NCBI GenBank assembly: GCA_965248355.1
Contig: OZ252098.1
Span: forward strand, 2,912,001 to 2,976,000
Direction: 5' to 3'
Source: Candidatus Latescibacterota bacterium
Lineage (GTDB): Bacteria > Latescibacterota > UBA2968 > UBA8231
DNA: 64,000 nucleotides
Part shown: positions 20,614 to 39,471 of the stretch, piece by piece
How positions within the stretch are numbered: the first letter of the stretch is position 1
Layout: every line of letters starts with the position of its first letter
The notes under the pieces: generated by a model
The model's input: only the letters and a program-made list of their open reading frames with translations
Database searches by the model: none
Told to the model about the DNA's origin: nothing
Translations under genes and position numbers: made by a program

Positions 20614-20629
20614 TGGCACGGTCTTTGTA
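20614..20629 (+). promoter_or_regulatory. Putative sigma54 (-24/-12) promoter
   Basis: TGGCACG-GTCT-TTGTA versus consensus TGGCACG-N4-TTGCW; ~50 nt upstream of the GT4 start; near-identical copy at 23834. Confidence 0.55.
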
Positions 20630-20676
20630 TCGGGCCTGTGTGCAACGTGGCATCCCTCCAACCCCGTCGATGGGAT

Positions 20677-21912
20677 ATGTCGCAGCCAGGCGTCACCCGC
20701 CCTGTGCCATCCGCGCGTCCTCAGCCGCGCCGGCCGGGTCCCGGTCCCGCAACCGGCCGTGGCCCGGGCCGGGGCATCATCGTGCTCAACGGCAACTTCG
20801 CGCCGGCGTCGGCGGCGGGACCTTTCAAGTACGGAGCCGTGGCCTATGCCCTGAAGGCGGCGGAGGCCCTCGACCGCCAGGGGCTGTTGGCCGGATTCCT
20901 TCTCTACCGGCGCGACGAGCGGTTGCACCGGCCGCGTCTGGAGCCGGTGTCGTTGCTCGGGTATCCCGCCCTCGAGCTCGGCTTTCACTTCGACATGGAT
21001 CGCGAGGTGTTGGCCGCGGCCCTGGAGGACGCCCGCGCGCGCCTGAACCGCGGGTGCCTCTACTACCAGACCAACGTGCTGCTGCCCTTTCACCCGCCGG
21101 GGCGGCCCCTCGTCGTCACCCATCACGCGCCCTTCGTCGACCACGTGGTCGAGGTCATGGGGGACCGCCTGGCCGCGGAGGCCTTCGGGGCCGGGCGCGC
21201 CAAGCTGGAGCACCTGCGGCACAGCCAGCGCATCGGACTGGACTGCCTGGTCCGCAGCCGCGGTTCCGCCGTGGAGATCTCGTCGATCCAGGCCGACTAC
21301 CTGCGGATGCACGGTGTGGAGCCTCGGTTCATCCACAGGATCTACCCACCCCTGGAGTGGCCCGACGGGGTGAACGGCCTCTCGCGGGAGGGTGCGCGTC
21401 TGCGGCGCTTCATCGCCGAGGCCGGCCCCCGGTTGGTCCTGTGCACGGCCTGCTCGCGGCTGGACGCCTTCAAGAACGTCGAACTCCTCGTGCAGGCCGC
21501 GTTGCGGCTGGTGAGGTCGGGTCTCGACCTGCGCGTGCTGATCATCGGGGGCCCCCCTCGGGATGGGGAGCGGCGGCGCCTGGAGAGACTGGTGGACGAG
21601 GGCCTGGCTCACCGTTTCCGCTTTGCCCCCAGGGTCCCGCGCGAAGACCTGGCCCGGGTGCTCGATGACCTGGCCGGCCGCGGCCTCTTCGTCTGTCCTT
21701 CCCGCTACGAGACTTGTGGTCTGACCCCCCTGGAGGCGGCGGCGCGGGGGGTGTGCACGTTGGTGGCGGACACGCCCGACAGGGTCGAGGCCGCGATCGC
21801 TGGTTCCGCCCCGGCACCGGTTCTCGCCCACGGTGGAGGGCCTTGGAGCCGCCGTGCGCCGAGTCGCCGAGCGACGGTCGGACCCTTGTTCGACGATCGG
21901 AGTCCTCGATGA
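20677..21912 (+). CDS. Family 4 glycosyltransferase (probable frameshift near 21794)
   Basis: [25 protein letters not shown] (E-x7-E); more natural-looking C-terminus continues in the 21833 frame. Confidence 0.8.
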
Positions 21913-22069
21913 GAACGCACAGGCCGGCAGCCGCGCCTTCGACGAGCTTGTTCATCGCGGCGTGGCTCCGGATCACGGCACCGGAGGTTCGCGGCAGACG
22001 CCTGCCGCGCCGGCAGCGACCGGCCAGAGCTCTCTCCGGAGCCGTCCCATCCCGCCTGAGAAGTCCACC

Positions 22070-22705
22070 ATGCCCGGGGGCCGTTCCGCCCGCCTGGATC
22101 TGTCCACCCACTTCAACAACGCCGGCATCACCCCGGACGGGCGGCCGGGGGCCGGGGGCCTCGACGGGATGGGCACGGCCTTCCGCGCCGAGTGCCTCCC
22201 GGCCCCGGGGGGGACCATCGTCAGCGAGGAGACGCCCTTCCTCTTTCCGGGCCGGGACCGCGAGTCGAAGGACAACATCGCCTGCGAGGCCCAGGAGATC
22301 CCGTTGCCGCCGGGCGCCTGGGACGCCCTCCACGTGCTGGGCATGTGCGACTGGCGGGCCTTCGAGGAGCCCCTCCGGTTGAAGGCCCCCGACGGCACCT
22401 GCTTGGAGACGCGCCTGGGACTCAGCGACGCCCCGCGTTACCAGGGGCTTCAGTACGGAGAGAGCGTGGCTCTCTCGTGTCCACTGACGGCCCCCGATAC
22501 CTCGATTCCCCTTTCCTCCCTCATCGGGACCTCCCCGCCGGGAGCGGGTTACGAGATGAAGGAGACCCGCATCGAGGCGGGGATCTGGCACCAGGTGATC
22601 CACTTCCATGGGCCCCGGCCGCTATCGGGACTGGTGCTGCCGGACAACCCGTCCATGCACCTCTTCGCCTTGACCTTGGTCGCGGCGGACGAGGTCTCCC
22701 CATGA
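22070..22705 (+). CDS. Hypothetical beta-sandwich (carbohydrate-binding-like) protein; possibly the C-terminal domain of the upstream GT4
   Basis: LDLSTHFNNAGIT...DNIACEAQEIPLP...LHVLG...LPDNPSMHLFALTL; stop overlaps next start. Confidence 0.6.
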   Translation: MPGGRSARLDLSTHFNNAGITPDGRPGAGGLDGMGTAFRAECLPAPGGTIVSEETPFLFPGRDRESKDNIACEAQEIPLPPGAWDALHVLGMCDWRAFEEPLRLKAPDGTCLETRLGLSDAPRYQGLQYGESVALSCPLTAPDTSIPLSSLIGTSPPGAGYEMKETRIEAGIWHQVIHFHGPRPLSGLVLPDNPSMHLFALTLVAADEVSP

Positions 22706-23712
22706 AGAAGCGCATCGACGGTATTCCCTTCTGCACCAACCGGCACTACAACTGTGTCTACGTGGTGCTCGACAGCCTGCTGCGCTTCCACGGCCACGAG
22801 CCCACCGTGCCCTGCTTTTCCAATTGGGACTTCGTCTACTCCCGGGATGGCGGGCCGTTCGCCATCCACGGCCGCGCCATCCCCCTTCCCAGGATGCTCA
22901 ACGCCTTCGGGATCGGACTGCTCAACCGCGGCGCGGCGGACGGGGAAGCCGCGTGGAAGGCCGTGAGAACGCTGATAGACGCGGATACCCCGGTGGCCGT
23001 CGGCGTCGACGTCTTCGCCCTCGCCCGGGCCGGCCTCTACCCCCGCCTGCGCCATGCCGACCACCAGTACATCGCCGCCGGGTACGACGACGAGGCGGGT
23101 ACCGTCCACCTGATCGATCCCTCCCCCTGGCAGCCTTGTGCACGGGACCTCCCCCTCGGCCTGTTCCTCGCCAGTTGGGACATGAGCGAGTTCTCCGGGG
23201 TACGGGACCGGTACAACTGGACCTGGCTGGAGGCGCCGGCGCCACGTCCCACCTTGCGCCGCGGCCCCATGCAGGCCCTCCTGCGGCGCAACCTCCGGAG
23301 CATGTCGGCCTCCAGCGGCCAGGGCGGTCTCGTCCTGGGCCTGGAGGGTATCGGACAGCTCGCCGAGGATGCCGGGGCCTGGGCGGCATACGAGGAGCCC
23401 TTCCTCAAAAAGCACTTGCGGCGGTGCGCCGAGCTCCTGCTGGAGATCGCCGTGCTCCGGGAGGGGCACGGCCACTTCCTGCGCCACCTGGGCCAGCTCT
23501 TCGACCGTCCCGCGCTGGCCGGCCTCGGCGGGGAACTCGAGGCGATCTCGCAGGGCTGGTTCGTCGTGAAGAACCTGTGCCTCAAGGGCGCCCTCAAGGA
23601 GCCGGCGAGCCTCCTGCCCCGCATTCAGTCCCGGCTCCACGACATCGAGGCCCGCGAACGGAAAGCCCTGGCGGGGCTGGCAGCGGCGGTGGAAGCGCCG
23701 GCCCGGCTTTGA
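22702..23712 (+). CDS. BtrH N-terminal-like papain-fold protein (acyltransferase/peptidase)
   Basis: YNC (Cys), HQYIAAGYD (His), LIDP (Asp); helical C-terminal domain. Confidence 0.75.
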   Translation: MKKRIDGIPFCTNRHYNCVYVVLDSLLRFHGHEPTVPCFSNWDFVYSRDGGPFAIHGRAIPLPRMLNAFGIGLLNRGAADGEAAWKAVRTLIDADTPVAVGVDVFALARAGLYPRLRHADHQYIAAGYDDEAGTVHLIDPSPWQPCARDLPLGLFLASWDMSEFSGVRDRYNWTWLEAPAPRPTLRRGPMQALLRRNLRSMSASSGQGGLVLGLEGIGQLAEDAGAWAAYEEPFLKKHLRRCAELLLEIAVLREGHGHFLRHLGQLFDRPALAGLGGELEAISQGWFVVKNLCLKGALKEPASLLPRIQSRLHDIEARERKALAGLAAAVEAPARL

Positions 23713-23833
23713 AGTGTCACCTCCACGACGCATGGCTGACGCCGGACACACACAACTCGCCCGAGCCTCGACCGGGCCGCGCGGAGGCCGCAAGTCGTTG
23801 CCGTCCAGAACGCGCCGACCGCGCCGCCGGCCC

Positions 23834-23905: not shown

Positions 23906-25111
23906 ATGAACATCGGCCTGATCGGTCACGGCTTCCGGCCCATCGCCGGGGGCCTGGAGCGCCCGCTTCGGGACTGCGCCGCCGGCCTCGCCCGGCGCGG
24001 CTGCCGGGTCCGCGTGCTGTCCATCGTCGGAGAGGGGTGCCGGCTGCCGCGCGACGAGGTCCTGCACCCGCCCGGCGGCTCCCCCGTCCAGGTGCACCGG
24101 GCCGCGGTGCCGCGCCCGGCCGCCAACGGCGATCCTCTTGCCGAGCCGGAGATCCCGGCCAGCGCCTGCCGGGGGCTCGCCCCGCACTGGTGCTCGCTGC
24201 TGGCCGACGCCGACGTGGTCTGCACCTTCGGCGCTTCACCGGCCCTGGCCGGCGCCGAGGTCCGCGCGCGGCTCGGACTCCCCTTCATCGCCGTTCTCCC
24301 CGGTCTGCCCAGCCAGGCCGACGCCCGCTTCCAGGAGGTCCTGCGCTGCGGCGCCGATCTGTTCGTCGGCGTCTCCCGCTCCATGTGCCGGCGCGCCGAG
24401 GAGCGCTTCGGCCTGCGCATGATCCCGGTCTGCAACGGCGTCGATACCGGGTTCTTCCAGCCCGTAGCGGCCCCGGCCGCCGAGTCGGCCCTCGGCCGCT
24501 ACGAGGTGCTGCGCGGCCTCCCGGGCCCGCTGATCACCAGCCCCGCGCGGCTCGATCCGGGTAATGGGCTCGAGCTGCTGATCGAGGCCTTCGAGCTGGT
24601 CGTCTCCCTGCGCCCCGACACCAGTCTGCTGATCACGGGCCTCGGCAGCCTCCGCCATCACCCCCTGGGGAACTCCTACGCCGATTACCTGGCCGGCCTG
24701 GTGGAACTGAAGGAGCTGGGCGCCAAGGTGCGCTTCGGCCGCGGCGTGTTCGAGGCCCGGCACATGCCCGCTCTCTACTCGCGCTCCCACCTGTGCGTCC
24801 TGACCGGCGCCGGCGAGGGCTTCGGCCTCGAATGGGCCGAGTCGCTGGCCTGCGAGACACCGGTGGTGGCCACCCGCACCGAAGGCATGGCCGAACTCTT
24901 CGGCCACGGCACCGGAGGCCTCTTGGTCGACGGCCGCGATCCGGTGAAGGTGGCCCAGGGCATCCTCCCCCTGCTCGACGACGACGGCCTGCGGCGCCGC
25001 CTCGGCCGCAGCGGCCGCGAGCACGTCCGCCGCGCCTTCCCGCTGCAGGCGCAGGCCGACCGCTACCTCGAGCTGTTCACGTCCATCCGGGCCGCCCGCG
25101 CCGCCGCCTGA
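23906..25111 (+). CDS. Family 4 glycosyltransferase
   Basis: FRPIAGGLE, NGVDTGFF, ARLDPGNG, EGFGLEWAE (E-x7-E), TPVVAT. Confidence 0.88.
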   Translation: MNIGLIGHGFRPIAGGLERPLRDCAAGLARRGCRVRVLSIVGEGCRLPRDEVLHPPGGSPVQVHRAAVPRPAANGDPLAEPEIPASACRGLAPHWCSLLADADVVCTFGASPALAGAEVRARLGLPFIAVLPGLPSQADARFQEVLRCGADLFVGVSRSMCRRAEERFGLRMIPVCNGVDTGFFQPVAAPAAESALGRYEVLRGLPGPLITSPARLDPGNGLELLIEAFELVVSLRPDTSLLITGLGSLRHHPLGNSYADYLAGLVELKELGAKVRFGRGVFEARHMPALYSRSHLCVLTGAGEGFGLEWAESLACETPVVATRTEGMAELFGHGTGGLLVDGRDPVKVAQGILPLLDDDGLRRRLGRSGREHVRRAFPLQAQADRYLELFTSIRAARAAA

Positions 25112-25125
25112 GGAGACCGGAAAGG

Positions 25126-26559
25126 ATGCCTCAAATGCAGCCGGAGTTTCTCGAGTATCTCCATCTTCCCGACGACGGCACGGCCCTGCTGAAGCCCACC
25201 CTCGAGAGTCTGCTCGAGTTGGCCAGAGAAGAGGCCGGGGACGAGTTCCCGTCGATCCGGCAACGACTCGAGGACGCCCACGCCGCGCTCGGCGGCGATG
25301 CCCGGGCCGCCGCGAGTTCCTTCCAGGGGGTCCAGGCGGCATGGCCGAATCCCGCCGCTTCCATGGCGGCCGGCGTCGCCCTCGCCCTGGCGTCGGATTG
25401 GCGCGGCGCCCTGGAGGTCTTCTCCGCGAACGCCGACCTGCTCGAGGCGAGGGGCCTTCCCGAGGCGGCTCTGGGCTGCCGGCTGAACCAGGCCTACATG
25501 CACTCCGTTCTGGGCGACTCGTCCAGCGCCGAGTCGACCCTCGATCAAGTCGTGGGGGCCTCGAGGCTCGCCGGGAAGACCCGGCTGCTGGCAACCGGAC
25601 TCCACGCCAAGGCGGTCCTCCGGTTGCGTCACGGCCGTTTCCCGGAGGCCCGGCAGGAGTGTGAGAGGGCGATGGCGGAATGCCCCGGGGAGCCCGAGCT
25701 GGCCCAGGTCATGGGTACGCAGGGCGTTGCCTCCCAGGCCCTCGGAGAGCTCCCGCGGGCGGAGAAGGAGTTCAGGGCCTCCCTGTCGCTGGCCTCGGGG
25801 GCTTCGCCCTTAGCGGAGTTGCGGGCCTCGGTCAACCTGGCCGTGCTCTGCCAGCTCACGGCGCGCGGCACCGAGGCCCTGGACCTGCTCGCCGGGGCCA
25901 CGGCCATCGCCGAGCGGCAGGGGGACGTGCGGTTCCTCGCCAAGGTTCGGTTCCTGCGGGCCCTGCTGGCCTTCGCGGAGACCGGGGAGGAGGCCATCCC
26001 GGCCGCCCTCGACGGCGTCGAGCAGATGCGCATCCATGGCTACCGCAAGGGAGAGCTGGACTCCATTGCCATGGTGGTCCCGTGCCTCCTCGAGTGCGGC
26101 AAGGCCCTGGAAGCGGAGACCCTGGCCGCGTCGGCGGTGAGCACGGCGGAAGAAACCGGATACCTGGCCGGGCTCCTCGAAGCGATGTCCAGCGCCGCCC
26201 TGGTCCATCTCGCCGGCGCCGACCTCGAGCGCGCGAGGGAGATGGCTTGCCGCCTCCTTGAGAAGAGCGCCGCGGCGGAGCTGCCCATGATCGCCGTCAA
26301 GGCCCACCGGGTCCTGTCGGACGTGTCGCTGCAGGAGGGAGAGCCGGAAAGAGCCCTGGAGCACCTTCGACGGGCGGAGGGAGCGGCCGCGGAGATGGGG
26401 GCCCAGGTGCTGCAGTGCCACCTCATGGAGGGAGTGGCCGGCCTCCTCGAGATCTGCGGAAGAATCGACGAGGCCGAGGCGGAGAGAGCGGCCGCCCAGG
26501 CGCGGGCGCTCTCCATCGGAGTGGGGAGGACTACCGGAGTCGGGAACAACATCGAATGA
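25126..26559 (+). CDS. TPR-repeat (MalT-TPR-like) protein with no recognisable output domain
   Basis: Repeated Ala/Leu-rich helical TPR-like units (e.g. NLAVLCQLTARGTEALDLL). Confidence 0.7.
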   Translation: MPQMQPEFLEYLHLPDDGTALLKPTLESLLELAREEAGDEFPSIRQRLEDAHAALGGDARAAASSFQGVQAAWPNPAASMAAGVALALASDWRGALEVFSANADLLEARGLPEAALGCRLNQAYMHSVLGDSSSAESTLDQVVGASRLAGKTRLLATGLHAKAVLRLRHGRFPEARQECERAMAECPGEPELAQVMGTQGVASQALGELPRAEKEFRASLSLASGASPLAELRASVNLAVLCQLTARGTEALDLLAGATAIAERQGDVRFLAKVRFLRALLAFAETGEEAIPAALDGVEQMRIHGYRKGELDSIAMVVPCLLECGKALEAETLAASAVSTAEETGYLAGLLEAMSSAALVHLAGADLERAREMACRLLEKSAAAELPMIAVKAHRVLSDVSLQEGEPERALEHLRRAEGAAAEMGAQVLQCHLMEGVAGLLEICGRIDEAEAERAAAQARALSIGVGRTTGVGNNIE

Positions 26560-26608: not shown

Positions 26609-26836
26609 ATGAACAGACTCATCAAGCCCCAGAAGCAGTCTTACACCGGCGAGGACGCCCAGGTCCTTGCTTATTCCGATGCCTGCGAGATAGCATGGCT
26701 CATGAACCTCTGCTCTGGCGGCATAGGCGCCGCAGTCTTGTTGGGCCTCGCCGTGCCGCCGGCCCTGGTCGCGTTCGGCGTGTCGTGCTTCATCATGTAC
26801 GTCATCACCTCGGCGGCGTGCAAGGGCTACATCTGA
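26609..26836 (+). CDS. RiPP/bacteriocin-like precursor peptide 1 (75 aa)
   Basis: GAAGGAG RBS; leader MNRLIKPQKQSYTGEDAQVLAY, 4-Cys hydrophobic core ending KGYI. Confidence 0.88.
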   Translation: MNRLIKPQKQSYTGEDAQVLAYSDACEIAWLMNLCSGGIGAAVLLGLAVPPALVAFGVSCFIMYVITSAACKGYI

Positions 26837-26950: not shown

Positions 26951-27166
26951 ATGAACAGACTCAACAAGCCCCGAAAGCAGTCCTACACGGGCGATGACAC
27001 TCAGGTCGTTGCCTACTCCCGTCTCTGCGAGATGACGTGGACGACCGCCTTCTGCACAAGCTCCCTGCCCTTCCTCGGCGGCGTGCATCCCTTCCTGGTC
27101 GCGGTGGGAGTGAGCTGCTCCATCTTCTCCATGGTCTGTTCGGCGGTGAGCAACGGTTACATCTGA
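26951..27166 (+). CDS. RiPP/bacteriocin-like precursor peptide 2 (71 aa)
   Basis: Same RBS/5' block; leader MNRLNKPRKQSYTGDDTQVVAY, core ending NGYI. Confidence 0.88.
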   Translation: MNRLNKPRKQSYTGDDTQVVAYSRLCEMTWTTAFCTSSLPFLGGVHPFLVAVGVSCSIFSMVCSAVSNGYI

Positions 27167-27387: not shown

Positions 27388-27609
27388 ATGAGCAAACTCA
27401 TCAAGCCGCAGAAGCAGTCCTACACCGGCGAGGACTCCCAGGTCCTTGCCTACTCCCTTGCCTGCGAGATTGCGTGGGCCACCCAGTACTGCGTGGCCTT
27501 GGTAGCGGTTGCTCTCATTTTTGGCGGGCCGGCTGGGGTGGCCGGGGTTGGCATCCTGTGTGTCGTCATCTACGTCGTCTCCACGTCGGCGTGCCACGGT
27601 TACATCTGA
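27388..27609 (+). CDS. RiPP/bacteriocin-like precursor peptide 3 (73 aa)
   Basis: Same RBS/5' block; leader MSKLIKPQKQSYTGEDSQVLAY, core ending HGYI. Confidence 0.88.
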   Translation: MSKLIKPQKQSYTGEDSQVLAYSLACEIAWATQYCVALVAVALIFGGPAGVAGVGILCVVIYVVSTSACHGYI

Positions 27610-27683: not shown

Positions 27684-29348
27684 ATGATCACAACATTCCT
27701 GTCGTCCTTGCCCCGGGTTTCGGAAGCGCTCTCCTACGCGGTCCGGGTCGAGGCCCGCACCCTGCGCCACGAGGCCCGGTCGAAGCCGGGAGACTTCTGG
27801 CCTGCCGTCGTACTCCTGGCCGCGGCCGGAGGGTTCTTCTGGCTGGGTCTCTGGTTATCACTCCACATCACCAAGGGCCTTCTCGGCGACGGGAACCCCG
27901 AGCTGGCCCTGGCCCTGGCCTCCGTGTTTCTCGCCTCCTACGCCTTCCTGTGGTTCTGCTTCGCCGTCGGCTTCGGCGGAGAGATCGTACCGATCTCCCG
28001 CCTGGAGAAGCTCGCCCAGCTTCGATGGACCCCGGGGCAGGCCTACGCGGCGGGCCTGGTGATGGCCGCCTTCAAGCCCCTGCCCCTGTTCTTCTCCCTG
28101 AGCTTCCTGACGATCGGGCTCACGCTCTTCCCGCCGGCCGGCGCCGCGTCCGTGCTGGCCTCGGGCCTGGCCACGGGCGTGACCGCTCTCGGCATCGTCG
28201 CCTTGACCCAGGGCGCCCGCTGCGCCATCGAGCTGGCGTCCTGGAAGGGCGCGCTGAGGACACTCGCCCGCGTCCTCGCGGGCGGACTGTTCGTGGCCCT
28301 GAGCCTGTTGCTCGCCTGGTCCCTGGTCGGCGGCGACTGGATCGAGCGGATTCGCGGGATTCCGGGCTCCTGGATCGAGATGGCGCCCACAAGCCTGCTG
28401 GCCCGGGCCTATCACCTGGCGGGGGAGGGACGCCTCGCGGACCTGCCGGGGCCCCTGGCCCTGCTCGGCGCCTTCGCGGCGGCCGGCTTCCTCTTCGGCT
28501 GGCGCCTCACCCGCCGGCGGGTCTTCCTCGCGGGCGGGTCCCGCCTGGCCCCGGCCGGCCCGCGCGACCGGATCCCGGGTCTGGCGCGGTGGCTCGGGCG
28601 GGTCCTGCCGCCGCCCTATCCGAACTTGGTGGTCCGCGAGGTGCTGGCCGCGATTCGCTGGAAGCAGCTCTGGATACAGGCGGCGTTGGCCGCGATGTTC
28701 GCATGCGGCGCTGCCATCACTCCTGCTCTCGCCCTCGCGGCCGGCGACGGACGCGCCAGTTTTCCCTACCCCTGGCAGATGCATGGCCTGGCGGTCGGCT
28801 TTCTCGCCGTCTTCCAGAGCGGGCTCGCGACCAACCTGTTCTCGAGAGACGGCAGGGCCGCCTGCGAGTACCTGCTTCTGCCCCTTGCCGAGCGGGAGAT
28901 CCTGGCGAGCAAGAACATCGCCTTCGCGATCATCCAGTACGCGGTGACGGCCCTCTGCGCCCCTGTCCTCCTCTTCGTGCTCTGGTTCCACGATCTCCTC
29001 GGACCCGGGCTCCAGGCCCTCGGGGCCGTGGTCCTGGCCCCCTTGGCGTTTGTCATCAGCGGCAACTATCTCTCGATCCTCAACCCCGCCAAGTCGCCCG
29101 GATCGAAGAAAGACCCGAGAGGCCATGTCCCGCGGAACAGCGGCCTCCTCCAGCTACTGCTGGGGACTCTCCTCGGCGCCGCGACGGCCCTGTATTTCTC
29201 GATCGATTCCGGGTACCTGCGCTACGCGGCGGCGGCCTTCGGGGTCCTGGCCGCGGCGGGGCTGCCGGCGGGGTACGTCCTCGCCCTGCGCCACCAGACC
29301 CGGCTGCTCCGGCAACGGCGCCTCGCCGTGGCGGAAGTGTTCTCGTAA
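27684..29348 (+). CDS. Polytopic ABC-2-type permease (export/immunity)
   Basis: ~12 TM helices; NLFSRDG..YLLLPL..ILASKN motif; precedes ABC ATPase. Confidence 0.75.
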   Translation: MITTFLSSLPRVSEALSYAVRVEARTLRHEARSKPGDFWPAVVLLAAAGGFFWLGLWLSLHITKGLLGDGNPELALALASVFLASYAFLWFCFAVGFGGEIVPISRLEKLAQLRWTPGQAYAAGLVMAAFKPLPLFFSLSFLTIGLTLFPPAGAASVLASGLATGVTALGIVALTQGARCAIELASWKGALRTLARVLAGGLFVALSLLLAWSLVGGDWIERIRGIPGSWIEMAPTSLLARAYHLAGEGRLADLPGPLALLGAFAAAGFLFGWRLTRRRVFLAGGSRLAPAGPRDRIPGLARWLGRVLPPPYPNLVVREVLAAIRWKQLWIQAALAAMFACGAAITPALALAAGDGRASFPYPWQMHGLAVGFLAVFQSGLATNLFSRDGRAACEYLLLPLAEREILASKNIAFAIIQYAVTALCAPVLLFVLWFHDLLGPGLQALGAVVLAPLAFVISGNYLSILNPAKSPGSKKDPRGHVPRNSGLLQLLLGTLLGAATALYFSIDSGYLRYAAAAFGVLAAAGLPAGYVLALRHQTRLLRQRRLAVAEVFS

Positions 29349-29366: not shown

Positions 29367-30134
29367 ATGGAACCGACCGTGGAGCTGGAAGACCTGACCA
29401 AGCGTTACCGGTCCACCGTGGCCGTCCGTTCCCTCTCCCTGAAGGTGGAGCCGGGGGCGATCCTCGGTCTCGTGGGGCCGAACGGCGCCGGCAAGACGAC
29501 GCTGCTGAACATGTTGGCCGGGCTCCTCGAGCCGAGCGAGGGCTCGGTGCGCCTCTTCGGACGCACCTACGCCGAGGCCGGCAACGACATCCGGGCCCTC
29601 ACCGGCGTCATGCGGGACGATCCGGGGCTCTACGAGAGCCTCACCGGATCGGAGCACCTGAGCTTCACCGGCTCGGCGTACGGCCTCGATCCTGCAGAGG
29701 TCGCGGAGCGGTCCCGCGAGGTGCTGGCGTTCATGGACCTGGAGCAGGCCGCCGGCGAGACCGCCGCCACCTACTCGGCGGGCATGAGGAAGAAGCTGGC
29801 CCTGGCCTGCATCCTGCTGCACCGGCCCCGGATGGTCCTCCTCGACGAGCCCTTCGCCGCCCTGGACCCCGAAGCCGCCCTCCGGGTGGAGGAGCTGCTC
29901 CGCCGGCTGTCGGCCGGCGGCGCCACCGTGGTCCTCAGCTCCCACGTCCTCGAGCGCGTCGACCGGCTCTGCTCCGAGCTGGCCTTCATCAACAAGGGAG
30001 AGCTGATCCTGCGGGGCCCGCCCGACGAGCTGCGCGCCCGGGGGGCCGAGGGCAAGAAGGCCGGGAGTCTCGAGGAGCTGTACATGGATCTCGTCGCCCC
30101 GGAAGGGGAGCGGCGGGGGCTCTCGTGGTTGTGA
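29367..30134 (+). CDS. ABC transporter ATP-binding protein
   Basis: GPNGAGKTT, YSAGMRKK, LDEP, SSH. Confidence 0.92.
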   Translation: MEPTVELEDLTKRYRSTVAVRSLSLKVEPGAILGLVGPNGAGKTTLLNMLAGLLEPSEGSVRLFGRTYAEAGNDIRALTGVMRDDPGLYESLTGSEHLSFTGSAYGLDPAEVAERSREVLAFMDLEQAAGETAATYSAGMRKKLALACILLHRPRMVLLDEPFAALDPEAALRVEELLRRLSAGGATVVLSSHVLERVDRLCSELAFINKGELILRGPPDELRARGAEGKKAGSLEELYMDLVAPEGERRGLSWL

Positions 30135-31885: not shown

Positions 31886-32325
31886 GGATTCCCTCCCGCA
31901 TCGAGTGGACCGGGGCAGCGGTCCTGATCTGCGCGGCCGCCTGCTCCCTGCTCCTGCTGATGGGGCTGGTCCTCATCGACGTGGAGCGGGGGGTCCGGGT
32001 CTCGGGGACGGTGACGGGAGGGGATGGTACCTGGCGGCTCGAGGGCCCCGTGTCGAGCCGGAGTCTCGGGCTCCTGGGCGACGCCCGGTACGTCCTCGCC
32101 GCGAGGGGGAACCGCCGGATCCTGTTGGGAGAAGTGCGGGCGGTCGACGCGCGGTTCCGCCCAGGCGCGGGGGAAGTCCTCGCCGCCGTGGAGTTCGAGT
32201 CCACGGCCAACGGCGACGGCCGGTCCCATCCCGTGGAAGAGGGCCCCGCGAGCCTTTTCCTGGCCACACGGCCTTCGGGGCCCTTGCTGCTCGCCCTCCT
32301 CGAAAAGGTGAGCCCCGCGAGGTAA
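31882..32325 (+). CDS. Small membrane-anchored protein (truncated HlyD/adaptor-like)
   Basis: N-terminal TM then 'DVERGVRVSGTV'; ATGA overlap with exporter. Confidence 0.5.
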   Translation: MRIPSRIEWTGAAVLICAAACSLLLLMGLVLIDVERGVRVSGTVTGGDGTWRLEGPVSSRSLGLLGDARYVLAARGNRRILLGEVRAVDARFRPGAGEVLAAVEFESTANGDGRSHPVEEGPASLFLATRPSGPLLLALLEKVSPAR

Positions 32326-32415: not shown

Positions 32416-33189
32416 ATGAAGAGATGGGCAGAGAGAGGCACGAAGGAGGAGGAGAGGGCGCACCTGGTGGACCGCGTGCGCCTCGTGGTGGCGTCGCCGC
32501 GGCAGGCTCTCGGCGCCATCCTCGAGAGCCGCCCCTGGGTGGACGTATTCGTGGTGCTGAGCCTGGGGAGCGCGCTGTTCTCGTGCCTCTCCCTGCACCT
32601 GGCGGGGGACCAACTGGAGCTCGTGCCGGCCGGACTGCTCACCGAGTCCCAGCAGGATGTCGTCGCCGTCCTGAGGTTCGCGGCGATCGTCCTGCTTGCG
32701 TTCCCGGTCACCCTCGTCAGCCTCCTGGCGCCCGCGTTCTTCCTGTGGCTGCTGGTGCAGATGTTCGAGGAATGGAGCGACTTCCGGTCGATCCTGGCCG
32801 TCGTCGCCCACGCGAGTCTGGTGTTGCTGTTCTCCCAGGCGGCGGACACCATCCTGCTCGCCCTGAGATTGCAGGGGCAAGAGGCCGTGGGCCTCTCGGA
32901 GATGGGAGCCCAGGCCGATCTGGGCCTGCTCTTCGACCTCGGCGGGGCCCCCCTTCTCGCGGTCCTCCTGTCGTACACCAGCCCTTTCAAGATCTGGTTC
33001 TATGGACTCCTCGTCCTCGGCATCGGCCGGGCCTGCCGGCTGACCTGGCCGCGCAGCGCCGGCGTCGTGGCGCTCCTCCTCGTCGCCAGCCTCGCGCTGA
33101 GAGTGAGCCTCACCTTCCTGACGGATTCGGCCTCCGAGTCCCTCACCGCCGACTCCGACTGCCCCGCCTGCGAGCTGCTGCCACACTGA
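32416..33189 (+). CDS. Yip1-domain membrane protein with C-terminal CxxC
   Basis: VVASPRQAL...FRSILAVVAHA...SPFKIWFYGLLVLGI; ends DSDCPACELLPH. Confidence 0.8.
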   Translation: MKRWAERGTKEEERAHLVDRVRLVVASPRQALGAILESRPWVDVFVVLSLGSALFSCLSLHLAGDQLELVPAGLLTESQQDVVAVLRFAAIVLLAFPVTLVSLLAPAFFLWLLVQMFEEWSDFRSILAVVAHASLVLLFSQAADTILLALRLQGQEAVGLSEMGAQADLGLLFDLGGAPLLAVLLSYTSPFKIWFYGLLVLGIGRACRLTWPRSAGVVALLLVASLALRVSLTFLTDSASESLTADSDCPACELLPH

Positions 33190-35114
33190 TGGCCAATCTC
33201 TCCTTTGCGGACCTGACGGGACGTGGGGTGCGCGTCGCCATCATCGACAGCGGCCTCGACACCTCCCGCCCCGACCTCGCGAGGAACGTCGTCGGAGGCG
33301 TCTCGATCCAAGTCGGGGACGACGGGACCATTCGGCGGAGCGAGGACTACGCCGACGAGGCGGGACACGGCACCGCCTGCGCCGGGATCCTCCGCGGCCT
33401 GGCTCCCGAGGTGGAGCTGTCGATCATCCGGATCTTCGACGCCCTCCTCTCCGCCCGGGCCTCGGTCCTGGAGGCCGCCCTCGAGCACGCCGGCGAGGAG
33501 GGCGCTCACGTCATCAACGCGAGCCTCGGAGTCACCGACACCGCGGTCGCCGGCCGTCTCCGGGATGTCTGCCGCAGCCTTCAGCGCGCCGGCATCTGCA
33601 TCGTCTCCGCTCAACCCCGCGGCGGCGAGCGCAGCTTTCCCGCGGAGTTCGAGGAGGTGATCGGCGTCGAGGACGGGGACGTCCGCGGCAAGTACGGGTA
33701 CCACTACCGCGCCGGCCGGCCCATCGAATGCGTCGCCAAGGGAGGCCCCCGCCGGGTCGTCTGGCTGAACGGGGAAGAGGCGCTGAAGAGCGGCGCGAGC
33801 TACGCCGCACCCCATATCAGCGGCATCGTGGCGCTCCTGAAGGAACGGTACCCAACGGCCGGCCTCGAGGAGATGCGGAGGCTGCTCGAGAGCAACGCCA
33901 CCAGCCCCCCGAGCGCGAGTCCCCGGGGACGGGGGAAGAAAGCCCGGAGCCCCGGGGGAAAGGGGCGCCCCGGCCGGGTGGATCGGCGGCCCTCCTCGCC
34001 GTGGATGCGCCGCGTCGTCCTGTACCCCTACAGCAAGGAGCTCCACGGCCTCGTCCGCTTTCGGGATCTCACGGGCCTGGAGGTGGTGGGCGTGGCCGAT
34101 CCGGCGGGCCGGCGCCTGGTGGGCAAGGACGCGGGAGAAGCGATCGGCGCGGAACCCGCGGGTGTCATGATCGGGCCTGCCCTCGCCGGCGAGCTGGGCG
34201 CCGGTGACACGGTGATCCTGGGCTATCTCGACGAGCTCGGACGGATCGCGAAACGCGACCTGCTGAGGGATGCCATCGAAGCCGCCCTCGCCGGCAACCG
34301 CAACGTCTACAGCCTGAATGCGGTGCCCGAGTTGAGGTATGGAGACTTGTACGCCGAGAGCCGCCGCAGGGGGCTCCGGTTGGCCTATCCCTCGGTCTCC
34401 ATCGCCGAGGTGGAGAGGACGATCCGGGAGAAGTCGACCCTGGGCAAGATCGCCGTGCCCGTCATCGGCTTCTTCGGGACGAGCTCCCAGCAGGGAAAGT
34501 TCACCGCCCAGCTGGCCTTGCGCCGCCATCTGCTGAAGCAGGGCTACCGGGTCGGCCAGCTCGGCACGGAGCACCAGTCCGGGCTCTTCGGTTTCGACTA
34601 CACCTTCCCCATGGGGTACGCCTCGCCCCTCGAACTGCCCCTTCAGCGCTTCGAGCCCTTCCTGGACGCCAAGCTCAGGGAGATCCATCACGACAAGAAG
34701 CCCGATGTGCTCATCGTCGGGTCCCAGTCGGGCACCATCCCCTTCGCCATCGACGAGCCCCGGAGCCATCACTTCGGGAGTCTCGCCTTCCTGTTGGGCG
34801 CCAAACCCGATGTCTGCGTGCTGGCGGTCAACTGCATGGACCCGGAGGAGTACGTGAGGCACACCATCGACGCCATCCGGATCGTCGGGAAGGCCCGGAC
34901 GATCTGTCTCCTGCTCAGCGACAAGCAGAGGCGCGTGGAGTCGGCCCATGGCCACACCTGGATGAGTTCCAGGGTCCTGAAGGGCGCGGCGCTGCAGGAG
35001 GCGCTGAAGGACCTGGAGGACCGGTTCGGCCTTCCCGCGGTATGCCCCGCCGACCCCGGCGGTCAACGCCGCCTCGCAGAGACCGTGGAGACGGCGCTCT
35101 CGGCGGCCGCCTGA
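33189..35114 (+). CDS. S8 peptidase fused to a DUF1611/TIGR04066-like P-loop domain (peptide maturation protein)
   Basis: IIDSG / GHGTACAG / SGASYAAPH triad; C-terminal PVIGFFGTSSQQGKFT...GYRVGQLGTE...VGSQSG. Confidence 0.8.
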   Translation: MANLSFADLTGRGVRVAIIDSGLDTSRPDLARNVVGGVSIQVGDDGTIRRSEDYADEAGHGTACAGILRGLAPEVELSIIRIFDALLSARASVLEAALEHAGEEGAHVINASLGVTDTAVAGRLRDVCRSLQRAGICIVSAQPRGGERSFPAEFEEVIGVEDGDVRGKYGYHYRAGRPIECVAKGGPRRVVWLNGEEALKSGASYAAPHISGIVALLKERYPTAGLEEMRRLLESNATSPPSASPRGRGKKARSPGGKGRPGRVDRRPSSPWMRRVVLYPYSKELHGLVRFRDLTGLEVVGVADPAGRRLVGKDAGEAIGAEPAGVMIGPALAGELGAGDTVILGYLDELGRIAKRDLLRDAIEAALAGNRNVYSLNAVPELRYGDLYAESRRRGLRLAYPSVSIAEVERTIREKSTLGKIAVPVIGFFGTSSQQGKFTAQLALRRHLLKQGYRVGQLGTEHQSGLFGFDYTFPMGYASPLELPLQRFEPFLDAKLREIHHDKKPDVLIVGSQSGTIPFAIDEPRSHHFGSLAFLLGAKPDVCVLAVNCMDPEEYVRHTIDAIRIVGKARTICLLLSDKQRRVESAHGHTWMSSRVLKGAALQEALKDLEDRFGLPAVCPADPGGQRRLAETVETALSAAA

Positions 35115-35116
35115 AG

Positions 35117-36061
35117 ATGACCGGACCCATGGGAGCGATGAGGAAGGCGATGCTCGCCGCGCTCGCGGCGGGCCTGTTCGTGCCGGGATGCCGGGGCGGC
35201 CAGGAAAGCTCCACGGTGCCGGGGCACCCGGTCGTCCGGGCCGTCCGTGGAGAGCTGACCGACAGGCTCTCGGCCGATGGCCGTCTCGAGTTCGCCGAGA
35301 TCGTGGACGTCAGCTCCACTCTCTCGGGCACCGTGACCTGGATCGCCGGGGAGGGTGGGATCGTGAAGGAGGGTGACCGGGTCGCCACCGTGCGGGGGCG
35401 GCAGGGACGGACCGCCAACGTCCCGGCGACCCGGGGAGGCACCGTGGTGAAGCGGCACGTGGACGCGGGAGAGAGCGTCCTCTCCGGTTTCGAGGGCGGG
35501 ACCGCGCTGGTATCCATCGCCTCCACGGAGAGCTTCATCGCCCGCTGCGACGTGGCCGAAGTGGACGTCGAGTCCTGGAGCCGGGACGGGCCGGCGGAAA
35601 TCACCGTGCAGGCCTTCCCCGAAGACCGCCTCGAGGGACGGGTGAAGCGGATTTCGAAGATGGGCCGCAGGAGCCCGGGCAGCCACATGATCACCTTTGA
35701 AGCGGTGATCGGCCTGCAAGAGACCACCGACCGGCTGCGCCACAACATGTCCTGTGTCGTGGAGGTTCCGACGTACGTGCAGAGGGACGTGATCTCCCTG
35801 CCGTTGCAGGCCGTCGTGCTCGAGGGCTTCGAAGCCGCCGCCTGGAGAGCCCGCGGTCCGGTGGGAGCCCGCGCCTGGTTGTGCTCGGCGGAGGACCCCG
35901 GCGGCGGAGGCGCGGCGCCGGCTTGCCCCCGGGACCACTTCAGGCAAGTGGGGCTGAGGATCTCGCGAGGCACGGAGAGCCGCGTCGTGGTCCTGTCCGG
36001 GCTCCGGGCCGGGGATCTCGTCGCCGCCGATGCAGCCGCCCTCGAGGAGGAGGCGGAGTGA
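35117..36061 (+). CDS. Efflux periplasmic adaptor (MacA-like), putative lipoprotein
   Basis: Lipobox-like VPGC, lipoyl-type repeats, LSGLRAGDLV terminus. Confidence 0.8.
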   Translation: MTGPMGAMRKAMLAALAAGLFVPGCRGGQESSTVPGHPVVRAVRGELTDRLSADGRLEFAEIVDVSSTLSGTVTWIAGEGGIVKEGDRVATVRGRQGRTANVPATRGGTVVKRHVDAGESVLSGFEGGTALVSIASTESFIARCDVAEVDVESWSRDGPAEITVQAFPEDRLEGRVKRISKMGRRSPGSHMITFEAVIGLQETTDRLRHNMSCVVEVPTYVQRDVISLPLQAVVLEGFEAAAWRARGPVGARAWLCSAEDPGGGGAAPACPRDHFRQVGLRISRGTESRVVVLSGLRAGDLVAADAAALEEEAE

Positions 36062-37281
36062 GTCCGCGTCTCAGGCGCCGTTGCCGAGTTGCCAGGGCCG
36101 CCGTGGTGCAGGGCCTCCGGTATCAGCTCCGCGGCAACCTGCCGCGCACCGCCCTCGCCTGTTTCGGGATCACCGTGGGCGCGGCGGGGCTTGTTGCGGT
36201 GCTGTCCGTGGGCGGCGGGCTCAGACGCCTGCTGATCTCGGACGCCCGGCAGGCGGGGGGCCATCTGAGCGTGATCATCGCGCCGCCGCCGGGCCCGGAG
36301 AGACGCGCCCCCCTGACTCTGGCGGATATCGATCGCATCGGACGGATTCCCGGCGTGGAAGCCGTGGTCCCCGAGACCAGCGCCCCGGGGCGGATAGGGG
36401 CCGGAGGGCGGCAGGTTCCGGCGCAGGTGCGGGGGGTCACACCGGAGTTCCTGTCCCGCCGCGACTGGGGGCTGGACAGGGGCCGGGGGATCGTCACCGA
36501 GGATGTGTACTCGTCGCGGCGAGTCTGCGTCCTCGGCCACTCCGTCGCCTCCCGGCTGTTCCCCGACGCGCAGAGGACGGACGGCGCCGTATCCATCGAT
36601 GGCCTGCGGTTCTCCGTGGCCGGGGTGCTGGAGCCACGCTCCCCTCGGGATCCGGGCGGCAACGACGTGGTGCTCGTCCCCATCACGACCTCCCTCGAGG
36701 CGCTCCGGATCCGGGAAGTCGGCAGGGCGACCGTTCAGGCCGCCCACGTGGAGGAGGTCCCCGCCATCGTCGAACGAATCAAGACGTGGCTGGCGCGGGA
36801 GCACCGATACGGCGAGGACTTCCGGGTCCGTTCGGCCGTCGCCGACGCCCAGGGCGCCGTCCGGGCCCTCCGGGGGATCGAGGTGTCGCTGGGGGCGTTG
36901 GCGGCGATCTGCCTCGGCCTCGGGGGCCTGGGCATCCTGAACGTCATGCTGGCCTCTCTCGATGAGCGCGTCTACGAGATGGGTCTGCGCTCGGCCATCG
37001 GGGCTCCCGGCCACGCCCTCCTGCTGCAGCTCCTGGCCGAGTCACTCGCCATGAACCTGGCGGGCTTCCTCCCGGGGATCGCCCTGGGCGCCGGGGTCTC
37101 GTCCTGCGTGGAGTGGTCCGTCTCCCTCTTCCTGCCCGGGGCTGACTTCCGCGCAGCCGTAACGGGCGAGGCCTTGCTGGCGGCCGGGCTGGCCTCGGGC
37201 GGGGTCGGCCTGCTGTCGGGGGTCTTCCCGGCTCTGCGCGCGGCGCGCATGAGCCCGGTGCAGGCCCTGAAGGAGACCTGA
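36058..37281 (+). CDS. MacB/FtsX-family ABC permease
   Basis: GGLGILNVMLASLDERVYEMGLRSAIGA; PALRAARMSPVQALK. Confidence 0.88.
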   Translation: MSPRLRRRCRVARAAVVQGLRYQLRGNLPRTALACFGITVGAAGLVAVLSVGGGLRRLLISDARQAGGHLSVIIAPPPGPERRAPLTLADIDRIGRIPGVEAVVPETSAPGRIGAGGRQVPAQVRGVTPEFLSRRDWGLDRGRGIVTEDVYSSRRVCVLGHSVASRLFPDAQRTDGAVSIDGLRFSVAGVLEPRSPRDPGGNDVVLVPITTSLEALRIREVGRATVQAAHVEEVPAIVERIKTWLAREHRYGEDFRVRSAVADAQGAVRALRGIEVSLGALAAICLGLGGLGILNVMLASLDERVYEMGLRSAIGAPGHALLLQLLAESLAMNLAGFLPGIALGAGVSSCVEWSVSLFLPGADFRAAVTGEALLAAGLASGGVGLLSGVFPALRAARMSPVQALKET

Positions 37282-37287
37282 GAGGGA

Positions 37288-38511
37288 ATGCGGAGTCTGC
37301 ACGCGGCGCCCATGGCCCTGGCGGCGATACGGCGGTTCCGCCTGAGGGCCGTCGTCGCGGTCGTCTCGGTGGCCATCGGAGTCGCAGCCATGGTGGCGAT
37401 CCAATCCTTCGGCGCCGCCATCCAGCGGCTGGTGATGGGCGAGCTCGGCAGGCTCGGGCTCGAAGGGCTGGTCCTGGTGCACCCCCGTCCGGCGCTGGCC
37501 CTGCAGGGGCCGGGGCCGATGCTGACCCTGCAGCAGGTGCGGGAGCTCGAACGCGGCGTGCCCGATCTCGACTACGTCGTGCCCATCTTGCATTTGGATC
37601 TCGAGATCCGGTCCGGAGGCCGCGGGACGTATGCCCGGGCCACGGGCACGGCACCCGACTACCGCCGGCTTCTCGGAGACAAGATGGCGGCGGGCCGGTT
37701 TCTCGACGAGACCGACGATCTGACTCGCCGCAGGGTCTGTGTCCTCGGCGCCGACCTGGCCAAGCGACTCCTGCGAGGCGGCCATCCCGTTGGACGGAAG
37801 GTCCTCCTGGCCGGCACCACCTACACGGTCGTGGGAGTGCTCGAGGGAAGGCGGTTGATGGATTCCGCCTGGGGCGACGAGCGGCTCATCATCCCCATCC
37901 GCACGCTGCAGAGCTTTCACGGGGGGCCGCCCGGGATCCACGCCATCCACGCATCCCTGGCGGCCGGTGCCGACGCTTCGAGAGCTCTGGCCGCGGTTCG
38001 TCGAGGGCTGGCCCGCGGCGGCGGCGGCCAGGACCTCGATCATTACGAGGTCATGAGCGGCCGGGAGGTGCTTCAGGACATCAACCAGGCCCTGATCGTG
38101 GCGCGCCTCGTGACGACGGCCATCGCCGGGATGGCCCTGCTCGTCGGGGCCGTGGGCGTCCTCAATACCATGCTCATCTCGGTGGAGCAGCGTGTCTGCG
38201 AGATCGGCCTTCGCAAGGCCCTTGGCGCCCGGCCGATGGCCCTCGTGAGCCAGTTTCTCACCGAGGCCGTGGTCCTGAGCTGCTGCGGGGGAGTACTGGG
38301 CCTGGCGCTGGGATGGGGGCTCGCCAGGGGCGGGGAGGCGGTGCTCTCCGGATGGCTCGGAACCTCCATGGCAGGGTCCACCGACTGGGGGACCGCGGGG
38401 CTCGCCCTCGCCGTCTCCCTGACCGTGGGCATCTGCTCCGGCGTCGTCCCCGCGGTTCAGGCCGCGGAACTCCCTCCCGCGGAGGCCATGAGGAATGCTG
38501 GTCGAGCTTGA
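37288..38511 (+). CDS. MacB/FtsX-family ABC permease
   Basis: GVLNTMLISVEQRVCEIGLRKALGA. Confidence 0.88.
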   Translation: MRSLHAAPMALAAIRRFRLRAVVAVVSVAIGVAAMVAIQSFGAAIQRLVMGELGRLGLEGLVLVHPRPALALQGPGPMLTLQQVRELERGVPDLDYVVPILHLDLEIRSGGRGTYARATGTAPDYRRLLGDKMAAGRFLDETDDLTRRRVCVLGADLAKRLLRGGHPVGRKVLLAGTTYTVVGVLEGRRLMDSAWGDERLIIPIRTLQSFHGGPPGIHAIHASLAAGADASRALAAVRRGLARGGGGQDLDHYEVMSGREVLQDINQALIVARLVTTAIAGMALLVGAVGVLNTMLISVEQRVCEIGLRKALGARPMALVSQFLTEAVVLSCCGGVLGLALGWGLARGGEAVLSGWLGTSMAGSTDWGTAGLALAVSLTVGICSGVVPAVQAAELPPAEAMRNAGRA

Positions 38512-39208
38512 ATCCGCCTGCAAGGTCTACCGGAAGGGGCCGGAGCGGGTGCGCGCCCTGTGGGATGTCGACGCCGCCTTCGGCCCCGGAGAGTTCGTGG
38601 CCCTCATGGGTCCCTCCGGCTCCGGGAAGACGACGATGCTCAACATCATCGGCTGTCTCGACTACCTGACGGCGGGGAGGTATCTGCTGCAGGGAGAGGA
38701 TGTAACCGGCTTGAATCCCATCCGCCTCGCCGAGGTCCGAAGCCGGAAGATCGGGTTCGTCTTCCAGAGCTTTCACCTGCTGCCGAGGGCGACGGCCGCG
38801 GAGAACGTCGAGCTCCCCCGGATCTACGCGGGATCAAGCCGGCGCCAGCGCAGAGAGTGCGCCCACGCGGCCCTCGAACGAGTCGGACTGGCGGATCGCC
38901 GCGACTTCCGGCCGGAAGAGCTGTCCGGGGGCCAGCGGCAGCGAGTGGCCATCGCCAGGGCCCTGGTGAATGAACCCTCTCTCATTCTGGCCGATGAGCC
39001 GACCGGCAGCCTGGACCCCCAGGCCGCCGGAGGGGTCATGGACCTCTTCACGAGACTGAACGACGAAGGCATCGCCATCGTCCTGGTCACCCACCAGGAA
39101 GACGTGGCACGGCACGCCAGGCGGAAGATCCGCCTGGCCGATGGGCGGGTGATCCCCGCACCCGACGGACCGGCGTGTCCCGCGCAAACACGAGAGACCC
39201 ACAGATGA
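38495..39208 (+). CDS. MacB/LolD-type ABC ATP-binding protein
   Basis: GPSGSGKTT, LSGGQRQR, ADEPTG, VTH. Confidence 0.92.
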   Translation: MLVELESACKVYRKGPERVRALWDVDAAFGPGEFVALMGPSGSGKTTMLNIIGCLDYLTAGRYLLQGEDVTGLNPIRLAEVRSRKIGFVFQSFHLLPRATAAENVELPRIYAGSSRRQRRECAHAALERVGLADRRDFRPEELSGGQRQRVAIARALVNEPSLILADEPTGSLDPQAAGGVMDLFTRLNDEGIAIVLVTHQEDVARHARRKIRLADGRVIPAPDGPACPAQTRETHR

Positions 39209-39471
39209 CGAAAGCGGAGATCACCGGCAGGGTCCGGGAGGCCGTGGTGAAGGCCCTTGAGCTGCCCATCGGGCCCGAGGAACTCCCCGAGAGCGAGCCC
39301 CTCTTCGGCGCCGACGGCGAAGTCGATTCGATCCTGTCGATCAAGCTGGTCGTCGAGCTGGAGGAAGCCTTCGGAATCGACGTCGACGATGACGATCTGA
39401 CGGAGGAACTCTTCGGGACGGTCGCGGCCCTGGCGGCGTACGTGGAAACCAAACTGGCTGGCCGGGGGTGA
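39205..39471 (+). CDS. Acyl carrier protein
   Basis: Acidic 88 aa; VDSILSIKLVVELEEAFGIDV with the phosphopantetheine Ser. Confidence 0.88.
   Translation: MTKAEITGRVREAVVKALELPIGPEELPESEPLFGADGEVDSILSIKLVVELEEAFGIDVDDDDLTEELFGTVAALAAYVETKLAGRG

Follow-up and report, generated by a model that had tools for sequence, protein, structure and literature searches.

A Latescibacterota gene cluster combining ribosomal precursor peptides with an S8-DUF1611 protein, an acyl carrier protein and an AziU2/AziU3-like pair

A stretch of 64,000 nucleotides from a Candidatus Latescibacterota bacterium (assembly GCA_965248355.1, contig OZ252098.1, positions 2,912,001 to 2,976,000 of the forward strand; hereafter the window, in which positions are counted) carries 19 co-oriented genes on the plus strand (20677-39471) that belong to a widespread family of ribosomal peptide clusters. 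The core module of this family is an S8 protease fused to a DUF1611 domain, a serine-bearing acyl carrier protein (ACP), a BtrH-like protein and a precursor peptide with an 'LxKP..AY' leader motif. Its scaffold has been catalogued, while its chemistry is undescribed in the literature searched, which omits most subscription journals and in which no characterisation of the module was found; on CLI_3235-type systems it offered annotation or a single crude product. Judging from the genes and their relatives, there is about an even chance that the cluster performs acyl transfer and lineage-specific glycosylation on a leader-cleaved, disulfide-stapled peptide. We put forward only tentatively that the family represents a new chemistry of ribosomally synthesised and post-translationally modified peptides (RiPPs), in which the protease-P-loop ligase would load the invariant glutamate of the core, or an acyl group, onto the ACP and a papain-like ligase would join this to an amine or to an amino sugar; glycosyltransferases (GTs) of families GT4, GT28 and GT2, GNAT, DUF692 and radical SAM proteins and a condensation domain would then be plug-in tailoring, and the present locus the glycosylated hairpin branch.

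The gene cluster is intact and real, and the earlier gene calls hold. A leader-motif scan of the whole 5.5-Mb genome, which is assembled as one contig, returned the three precursors of the cluster as the only open reading frames (ORFs), and a search for syntenic clusters, as proposed in the initial annotation, found the gene order conserved in congeneric genomes, which makes the arrangement more than a chance one. ORF coordinates and searches of the cluster proteins against Pfam and NCBIfam profiles, by which families were assigned, confirmed the some 19 co-oriented genes of that annotation and their identities; the beta-sandwich (beta) protein, a 147-aa protein and the three precursors are without a family match, and in the pair of ABC-2 permease and ATPase the ATPase is secure whereas the permease match is weak. 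The genes had also been described as mostly overlapping, which is true of only 7/18 junctions, while 12/18 overlap or lie at most 20 nt apart as counted from the coordinates. Among the 19 genes the same searches matched no radical SAM, LanM or YcaO protein, as had been stated. With respect to the first GT gene (GT4a), the reading frame in the window assembly departs from that of two orthologues near 21797 and stops at 21912. Single bases at 21796/21798, 21949 and 22000 are missing from the contigs of all 4 read runs examined, and the best-matching run shows two haplotypes with 6 gaps each over 21654-22050. GT4a is therefore intact in nature and the frameshift an assembly artefact, the intact reading frame ending with the TGA at 22057-22059 and the beta gene beginning with the ATG at 22070; this rules out both a GT4a pseudogene and a GT4a-beta fusion.

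The beta protein and the BtrH-like protein proved to be homologues of AziU2 and AziU3 (Azi28/Azi29), and lie adjacent and in the same order as these. An alignment profile of the BtrH-like protein matches AziU3/Azi29 with E=1e-30; the single sequence found no match among PDB sequences. Its model, predicted from the alignment with a confidence (pLDDT) of 93 (41 for the single-sequence fold), superposes on AziU3 with Z 28.8 (root-mean-square deviation 2.8 over 306 residues), on CcbD with 24.6 and on CtaG with 22.8, the next hit reaching 12.5, at about 19% identity to AziU3. His121 and Asp139 are invariant in 39 BtrH-like sequences, and Cys18 is conserved in at least 90% of them. According to PMC12865890, CtaG, BtrH, AsbE and MllDE are papain-like ligases that use carrier-bound donors, and AziU2/U3 is a structurally similar, aziridine-forming enzyme; the text and supplement passages of that paper that were searched make no mention of RiPPs. 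The match in fold and triad to carrier-dependent enzymes suggests that a carrier-bound acyl group is the most likely substrate of the pair, in keeping with the ACP-linked transferase originally proposed, and by analogy this might be a ligation. The beta domain is also found fused to BtrH_N in two proteins (P0095 and P0132; P and L numbers denote proteins and loci of this analysis) and on GH92/GH38/GH2 enzymes. A third such fusion, P0001, is apparently a chimera produced by a frameshift and was left out. The AziU2 homology weakens the idea that the beta protein binds sugar and hence points to a glycan acceptor.

The S8-DUF1611 protein is homologous to TIGR04066 (110 bits, below the cutoff of 200) and is fused to an S8 domain that has its catalytic motifs and lacks a signal sequence. 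The P-loop G/T/GKFT is invariant in 24 sequences of the DUF1611 half, which resembles PDB 2g0t, and was found by regular expression in 58/64 DUF1611 ORFs, the misses including split genes. The cluster ACP gave no match to TIGR04069 and is instead a canonical PP-binding ACP, whose serine is kept in 57/57 related ORFs; two phosphopantetheinyl transferases are encoded in the genome. As the only conserved nucleotide-binding enzyme of the module, DUF1611 would be the candidate ACP loader.

At E 1e-20, the DUF1611 half has matches in 87 of the phylum's 168 genomes, with up to 7 per genome. From the listed matches 60 loci of ~20 kb each were picked for long contigs, i.e., non-randomly and with several per genome, and locus profiles were built from them, with four GT4 assignments added by hand. 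S8 and DUF1611 occur in 60/60 of these loci, an ACP in 56 and a BtrH-like gene in 44, the latter comprising 13 stand-alone genes of the Cys type, 27 without the N-terminal cysteine and 4 fused to a carrier and a non-ribosomal peptide synthetase (NRPS) condensation domain. These four fusions (L055, L057, L061 and L078) lie directly 3' of S8-DUF1611 and ACP. The beta subunit is present at 11/60 loci, always together with a Cys-type BtrH-like gene, a GNAT at 9/60 and a radical SAM motif at 2/60, from which it follows that the absence of radical SAM enzymes is normal for the family. The absence of a radical SAM maturase given in the initial annotation is upheld with this qualification. In metagenomes, 80 of 361 relatives were kept and 35 analysed, 18 loci being left out by record name and 27 for being under 6 kb; five of the 35 have a radical SAM motif and one a GT4, and others carry PhyH/JmjC, ThiF or asparagine-synthetase genes. 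The DUF1611 half also matches six Bacillus plasmids. On the one that was inspected, the Bacillus mycoides plasmid NZ_CP035996.1 (L115:8861-15771), the module comprises ABC, a serine-bearing ACP, two 44-aa precursors, S8-DUF1611, DUF692 with its partner and a BtrH-like gene, without radical SAM and with DUF692 in place of GT4. In turn, two CcpM clusters that were inspected have a degenerate P-loop, an ACP without the serine motif and no annotated BtrH gene, so that all three are lost together in 2/2 cases.

With respect to the substrate, the three precursors derive from a tandem duplication in which upstream DNA was copied along. An exact 36-nt direct repeat follows precursors 2 and 3 (27213-27248 and 27654-27689), and joints across the precursor array in the read contigs hint at copy-number variation. 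The precursor relatives, grouped into 62 sequence clusters, have a 22-aa leader (61/62) and hydrophobic, hypervariable cores with an even number of cysteines in 60/62 (four in 45, two in 15, odd in 2). Across these 62 precursors Cys4 and the last Cys covary, both being present in 46, neither in 13 and only one in 3, although the sequences are related and a p-value would overstate this. Together with the conserved inner pair, the covariation supports a nested two-disulfide helical hairpin, and with it the Cys hairpin that had been proposed at the outset. The core was expected to start at Ser23, and residue 1 is indeed Ser in 52/62 precursors but Ala in 10, so that serine is common and not required. 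Some S/T/C/N is found in 56/58 core loops, at no conserved column, and precursor 3 has none. A metagenome scan with the precursor alignment gave 102 pattern hits, none of them confirmed, and a search of the ESM Atlas with precursor 1 returned no match at 0.9, which is uninformative.

The sole invariant core residue is a glutamate at position +5 (62/62). As the paired Cys4 precedes it, it would lie inside the outer disulfide ring and would not be trimmed off. In unrelated cores across the phylum, a Glu stands at +3 after the leader Tyr in 32/39 scan hits and 15/20 families, a position that the leader scan, whose opposite-strand control gave 5 hits, does not score; about three of the exceptions look like false hits and two would fit if cleavage took place at an earlier Tyr. 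The Bacillus cores likewise have it at +3, and the precursors of the two CcpM clusters that lost the ACP serine, P-loop and BtrH have no such Glu (2/2). This residue may be a protease determinant or a modified residue. If it is modified, the peptide itself might be the acyl donor, DUF1611 activating the Glu side chain with a nucleoside triphosphate and tethering it to the ACP as a thioester, from which the BtrH-like protein would couple it to an amine, which could be the peptide's own N-terminus, closing a small lactam, or could belong to an amino sugar that the GTs produce. In line with such a role, no other loading enzyme is found, a DUF1611 relative weakly matches CobQ (E=0.1), and a Glu-bearing carrier is the BtrH donor in butirosin (PMC7183216). 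However, the Glu may merely be a recognition residue of the protease inherited with the leader, its spacing is +5 in the cluster against +3 elsewhere, no DUF1611 enzyme has a name other than one that is, by the name of its model, an N-acetyltransferase, and the CcpM comparison comprises just two clusters; this alternative is considered rather unlikely.

The GTs had originally been regarded as defining the class, a view that their distribution does not bear out. Any GT is present in 12/60 phylum loci (GT4 in 6, GT28 in 5, GT2 in 3), and all 12 carry a BtrH-like gene. GT4a has orthologues in 4 congeners and 3 genomes of another genus (8/168 genomes including the source genome), and in comparison with a congener its ratio of non-synonymous to synonymous substitution rates (dN/dS; obtained by simple counting, at high GC) of 0.31 resembles that of neighbouring genes. 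At L109:6178-11136 and L111 the GT4a orthologue lies 3' of a GT2 and of a fusion between GT28-like and transglutaminase parts; TPR (tetratricopeptide repeat) and ABC genes are close by, and S8-DUF1611 is absent. The second enzyme, GT4b, matches 11/168 phylum genomes, and outside the cluster it adjoins a BtrH-like gene in 5/5 genomes, three of which are congeners and hence not fully independent; one of these satellite loci has a leader-bearing precursor, so that GT4 and BtrH-like genes do co-occur with such precursors elsewhere. A PMT-type membrane GT flanks two of the satellites. The GTs are thus functionally tied to the BtrH-like ligase but are optional, swappable add-ons.

This patchiness would fit another explanation, namely that the product is an unmodified disulfide-hairpin bacteriocin, with ACP, DUF1611 and BtrH-like proteins as scaffolds or leader-binding pseudo-enzymes and with the GTs acting on the envelope for self-protection. 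The GTs are nearest to lipid and small-molecule GT4s and the PMT-type GT stands at two GT4b satellites, the Cys-less BtrH-like proteins are the commoner type (27/44), and CcpM clusters work with a serine-less ACP. However, retention of the ACP serine (57/57), of the P-loop (58/64 ORFs) and, in this subfamily, of the Cys-His-Asp triad, as well as the existence of BtrH-carrier-condensation fusions, speak against it, and an unmodified product is considered unlikely.

A division of labour is also conceivable, though we think it improbable, in which DUF1611 alone would N-acetylate the freed N-terminus from acetyl-CoA in a DgcN-like cut-and-cap reaction, and the ACP, the AziU2/U3-like pair and the GT4s would produce an acylated glycoside as a separate compound or carry out a reaction other than ligation, e.g., a ring closure on a carrier-bound substrate. 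S8 is indeed fused to DUF1611, a relative of which matches a model named N-acetyltransferase DgcN (E=1e-5), and the GT4b-BtrH satellites sit away from S8-DUF1611 in five genomes. GT4 enzymes moreover take part in butirosin and lincosamide biosynthesis, and pairs of a carrier-dependent ligase and a GT4 build these compounds. Against a separate glycoside, the ACP is tied to S8-DUF1611 (56/60) and not to the GTs, one satellite has its own precursor, and genes for a sugar core or for amino-acid loading are absent.

The preferred reading, acyl transfer with lineage-specific glycosylation, can be phrased as five steps. The cytoplasmic S8 domain would very probably cut the 22-aa leader after ..AY (Tyr22). 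Holo-ACP would then, with moderate confidence, carry an acyl group, which the P-loop DUF1611 domain would load or help to load, and the AziU2/U3-like pair would move this group via the catalytic cysteine to an amine, in the simplest case the freed N-terminus or an amino sugar, with the invariant core Glu as recognition or reaction site. With moderate to weak confidence, the GT4s might glycosylate the peptide or build the sugar acceptor in this lineage. Two nested disulfides, as supported by covariation, would staple the hydrophobic helical hairpin. Finally, from what is known of such families, the ABC exporter would secrete the peptide, and the permease/ATPase and the Yip1-MacAB set would protect the host from a membrane-active product. 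This sequence of events draws on synteny and purifying selection, the conservation of the module over 60 loci, the fold and triad match to CtaG/CcbD/AziU3, the BtrH-carrier-condensation fusions (4/60), the Bacillus plasmid module, the joint loss of ACP serine, P-loop and BtrH in the CcpM clusters, the GT/BtrH-like co-occurrence (12/12; GT4b 5/5) and the Cys covariation. It is weakly favoured, too, by the related SacP23 product, which stems from a cluster with a radical SAM enzyme and of which the N-terminus is blocked and the mass unexplained (PMC10731318).

Several observations weigh against this reading. The nearest structural match, AziU3/U2, forms an aziridine and is not a ligase (PMC12865890), most BtrH-like relatives lack the N-terminal catalytic cysteine (27/44), and 16/60 loci have no BtrH-like gene within ~10 kb. 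No adenylation, ATP-grasp, ketosynthase or other acyl-activating gene is present in the cluster, so that gene content does not name the acyl donor, and the additional neighbours scanned hold one ATP-grasp protein (PurT; among 66 proteins) and one adenylation domain (at L117, apparently in a separate cluster; among 68). With respect to glycosylation, 48/60 loci are without a GT, and L117 shares the cluster layout and has a two-Cys hairpin precursor with no GT seen. In the three genomes of the other genus GT4a lies in a GT28/GT2 context with no S8-DUF1611 module nearby. GT4b, with a dN/dS of 0.79, has an internal deletion in L002 and a frameshift in L001, where the cluster is broken up, i.e., in 2/4 congeneric clusters. 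Finally, no conserved Ser/Thr acceptor column exists in the cores of the 62 precursors.

The features of the cluster are compiled in Table 1. For the TPR protein, a role as regulator or in precursor binding is putative.

Table 1. The 19 genes of the cluster, with their positions in the window.
Feature	Position	Strand	Remarks
GT4a, GT-B glycosyltransferase	20677..22059	+	PF00534 E=1e-14; E-x7-E motif intact; ~458 aa in real strains; orthologues 481-483 aa
AziU2/Azi28-like beta-sandwich partner subunit	22070..22705	+	phmmer to PDB 8gs1_A/7wuw_A E=2e-13
BtrH/AziU3/CtaG-like papain-fold, putative carrier-protein-dependent transferase	22702..23712	+	PF14399+PF16169 (BtrH_N+DUF4872); Cys18-His121-Asp139
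GT4b glycosyltransferase	23906..25111	+	PF00534/PF13439; nearest PDB PimB/MshA-type
TPR protein	25126..26559	+	TPR_12/TPR_2; homologues in sister clusters L048, L049, L051, L117
Precursor 1	26609..26836	+	22-aa leader ending VLAY; 53-aa hydrophobic core; 4 Cys; Glu at +5
Precursor 2	26951..27166	+	22-aa leader; 49-aa core; 4 Cys
Precursor 3	27388..27609	+	22-aa leader; 51-aa core; 4 Cys; hairpin loop without Ser/Thr/Cys/Asn
Multi-pass membrane protein, probable ABC-2 type immunity permease	27684..29348	+	weak PF13346 E=0.037; ATPase follows
ABC ATPase, DrrA/LanF-like	29367..30134	+	Pfam/NCBIfam
ABC exporter without peptidase domain	30125..31885	+	PF00664+PF00005; no C39 match
147-aa membrane-anchored protein	31882..32325	+	no family; always 3' of exporter in sister clusters
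Yip1/YknW-like membrane protein	32416..33189	+	PF04893; NF052650 under cutoff
Cytoplasmic S8 protease fused to DUF1611/TIGR04066-like P-loop domain	33189..35114	+	PF00082+PF07755; P-loop GTSSQQGKFT
MacA/HlyD-type adaptor	35117..36061	+	Pfam
MacB-type permease 1	36058..37281	+	Pfam
MacB-type permease 2	37288..38511	+	Pfam
MacB-type ABC ATPase	38495..39208	+	Pfam/NCBIfam
Stand-alone ACP with phosphopantetheine serine (DS motif)	39205..39471	+	PF00550 41.7 bits, above cutoff

Upstream of the cluster, at a distance of 4.6 kb, lies a radical SAM gene (14841-16049, plus strand) of the PA0069 family (480 bits, cutoff 360), a membership that rules it out as a peptide maturase. At the GT4b satellite loci L204, L205 and L208 this gene is again found in the flank, next to a DnaE2-like ORF, which suggests a shared insertion neighbourhood. 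The segment 15976-18086 (plus strand) encodes a thioredoxin-like protein, an A24 prepilin peptidase (PF01478) and a Cys-rich peptide of 101 aa whose leader is pilin-like. The pair of peptidase and peptide is found also in L002 and L112, and L001 has three repeats of it in which the peptides diverge; this is possibly a separate system of A24-processed disulfide peptides. A family of secreted acidic proteins without Pfam match (9979-10884, 13768-14775, 18172-19101 and 19237-20250) shares the conserved C-terminal tail SAVEPSSW.RIKA, two tandem copies being 92% identical at the DNA level. Directly 3' of the ACP, a low-GC island (39642-42855) contains an AAA_21/AbiEii-type ATPase and its partner, followed by an IS3-type transposase pair.

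With the module present in about half of the phylum genomes (87/168) and joined to unrelated cores, its enzymes are probably leader-guided and tolerant and might be useful for peptide acylation or glycosylation; genome mining keyed to radical SAM, LanM or YcaO proteins would miss it. The proposed chemistry offers a testable function for the TIGR04066/ACP accessory pair catalogued beside CcpM and, if true, would bring the recently described class of CtaG/BtrH ligases, known from non-ribosomal pathways, to ribosomal peptides, the cultured Bacillus host with the same module being a practical test system.

When compared to known systems, the cluster shares with CLI_3235/CcpM clusters (e.g., SacP23, PMC10731318) a basic leader of ~20 aa ending in Tyr, S8, TIGR04066-like and ACP-like proteins and a peptidase-less exporter, a scaffold catalogued in PMC4573289 and PMC10731318. 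Unlike these, it has no radical SAM enzyme, its S8 is fused to a DUF1611 domain with intact P-loop, its ACP keeps the serine, and it adds the BtrH/AziU2 pair, GT4s and hydrophobic hairpin cores with an invariant Glu. On the cluster, the four TIGR models of CLI_3235 stay below cutoff or give no score: TIGR04065 gave no match to the three precursors at E 0.1, and TIGR04068, the CcpM radical SAM model, none in the cluster and at best 84 bits in the genome (cutoff 500). The initial view of a RiPP-type cluster related to CLI_3235/CcpM yet outside it is thereby upheld.

With CtaG, BtrH, AsbE, MllDE and CcbD the BtrH-like protein shares the papain plus helical bipartite fold, the Cys-His-Asp triad and a dedicated carrier (PMC12865890). 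The examples described all belong to ribosome-independent pathways with an ATP-grasp or CoA-ligase loader, whereas here ribosomal precursors and a leader protease adjoin and no such loader is encoded. In comparison with AziU2/AziU3 of azinomycin, both subunits are homologous, adjacent and in the same order, but Pfam and NCBIfam searches found no amino-group carrier, sulfotransferase, NRPS or polyketide synthase among the 19 genes. The azinomycin aziridine substrate is carrier-bound and sulfated, with amino-group carrier, sulfotransferase and NRPS genes; aziridine chemistry is without an evident substrate in the cluster.

Glycocins such as sublancin and glycocin F have a SunS-type GT2, a double-glycine leader and a C39 transporter. 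The cluster resembles them in its helix-loop-helix core with two nested disulfides (here by covariation) and in its GT genes, but both GTs are GT4 and not GT2, the leader ends in AY, the exporter is without C39, an ACP/BtrH module is present, and the long hydrophobic loop has no conserved Ser/Thr/Cys acceptor. Ribosomal lipopeptides (lipolanthines/goadvionins, albopeptins, lipoavitides, selidamides) use GNAT, NRPS condensation, FabH-like or ligase enzymes along with dedicated fatty-acid genes and a cyclase that defines the class; we know of no BtrH-like ligase among them, and acyl transfer to a ribosomal peptide after leader removal or around it, which they have in common with our proposal, is only proposed here. 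By its sequence the cluster is thus neither a CLI_3235/CcpM member nor a glycocin, and would rather work like a thiotemplated ligase system grafted onto a ribosomal peptide.

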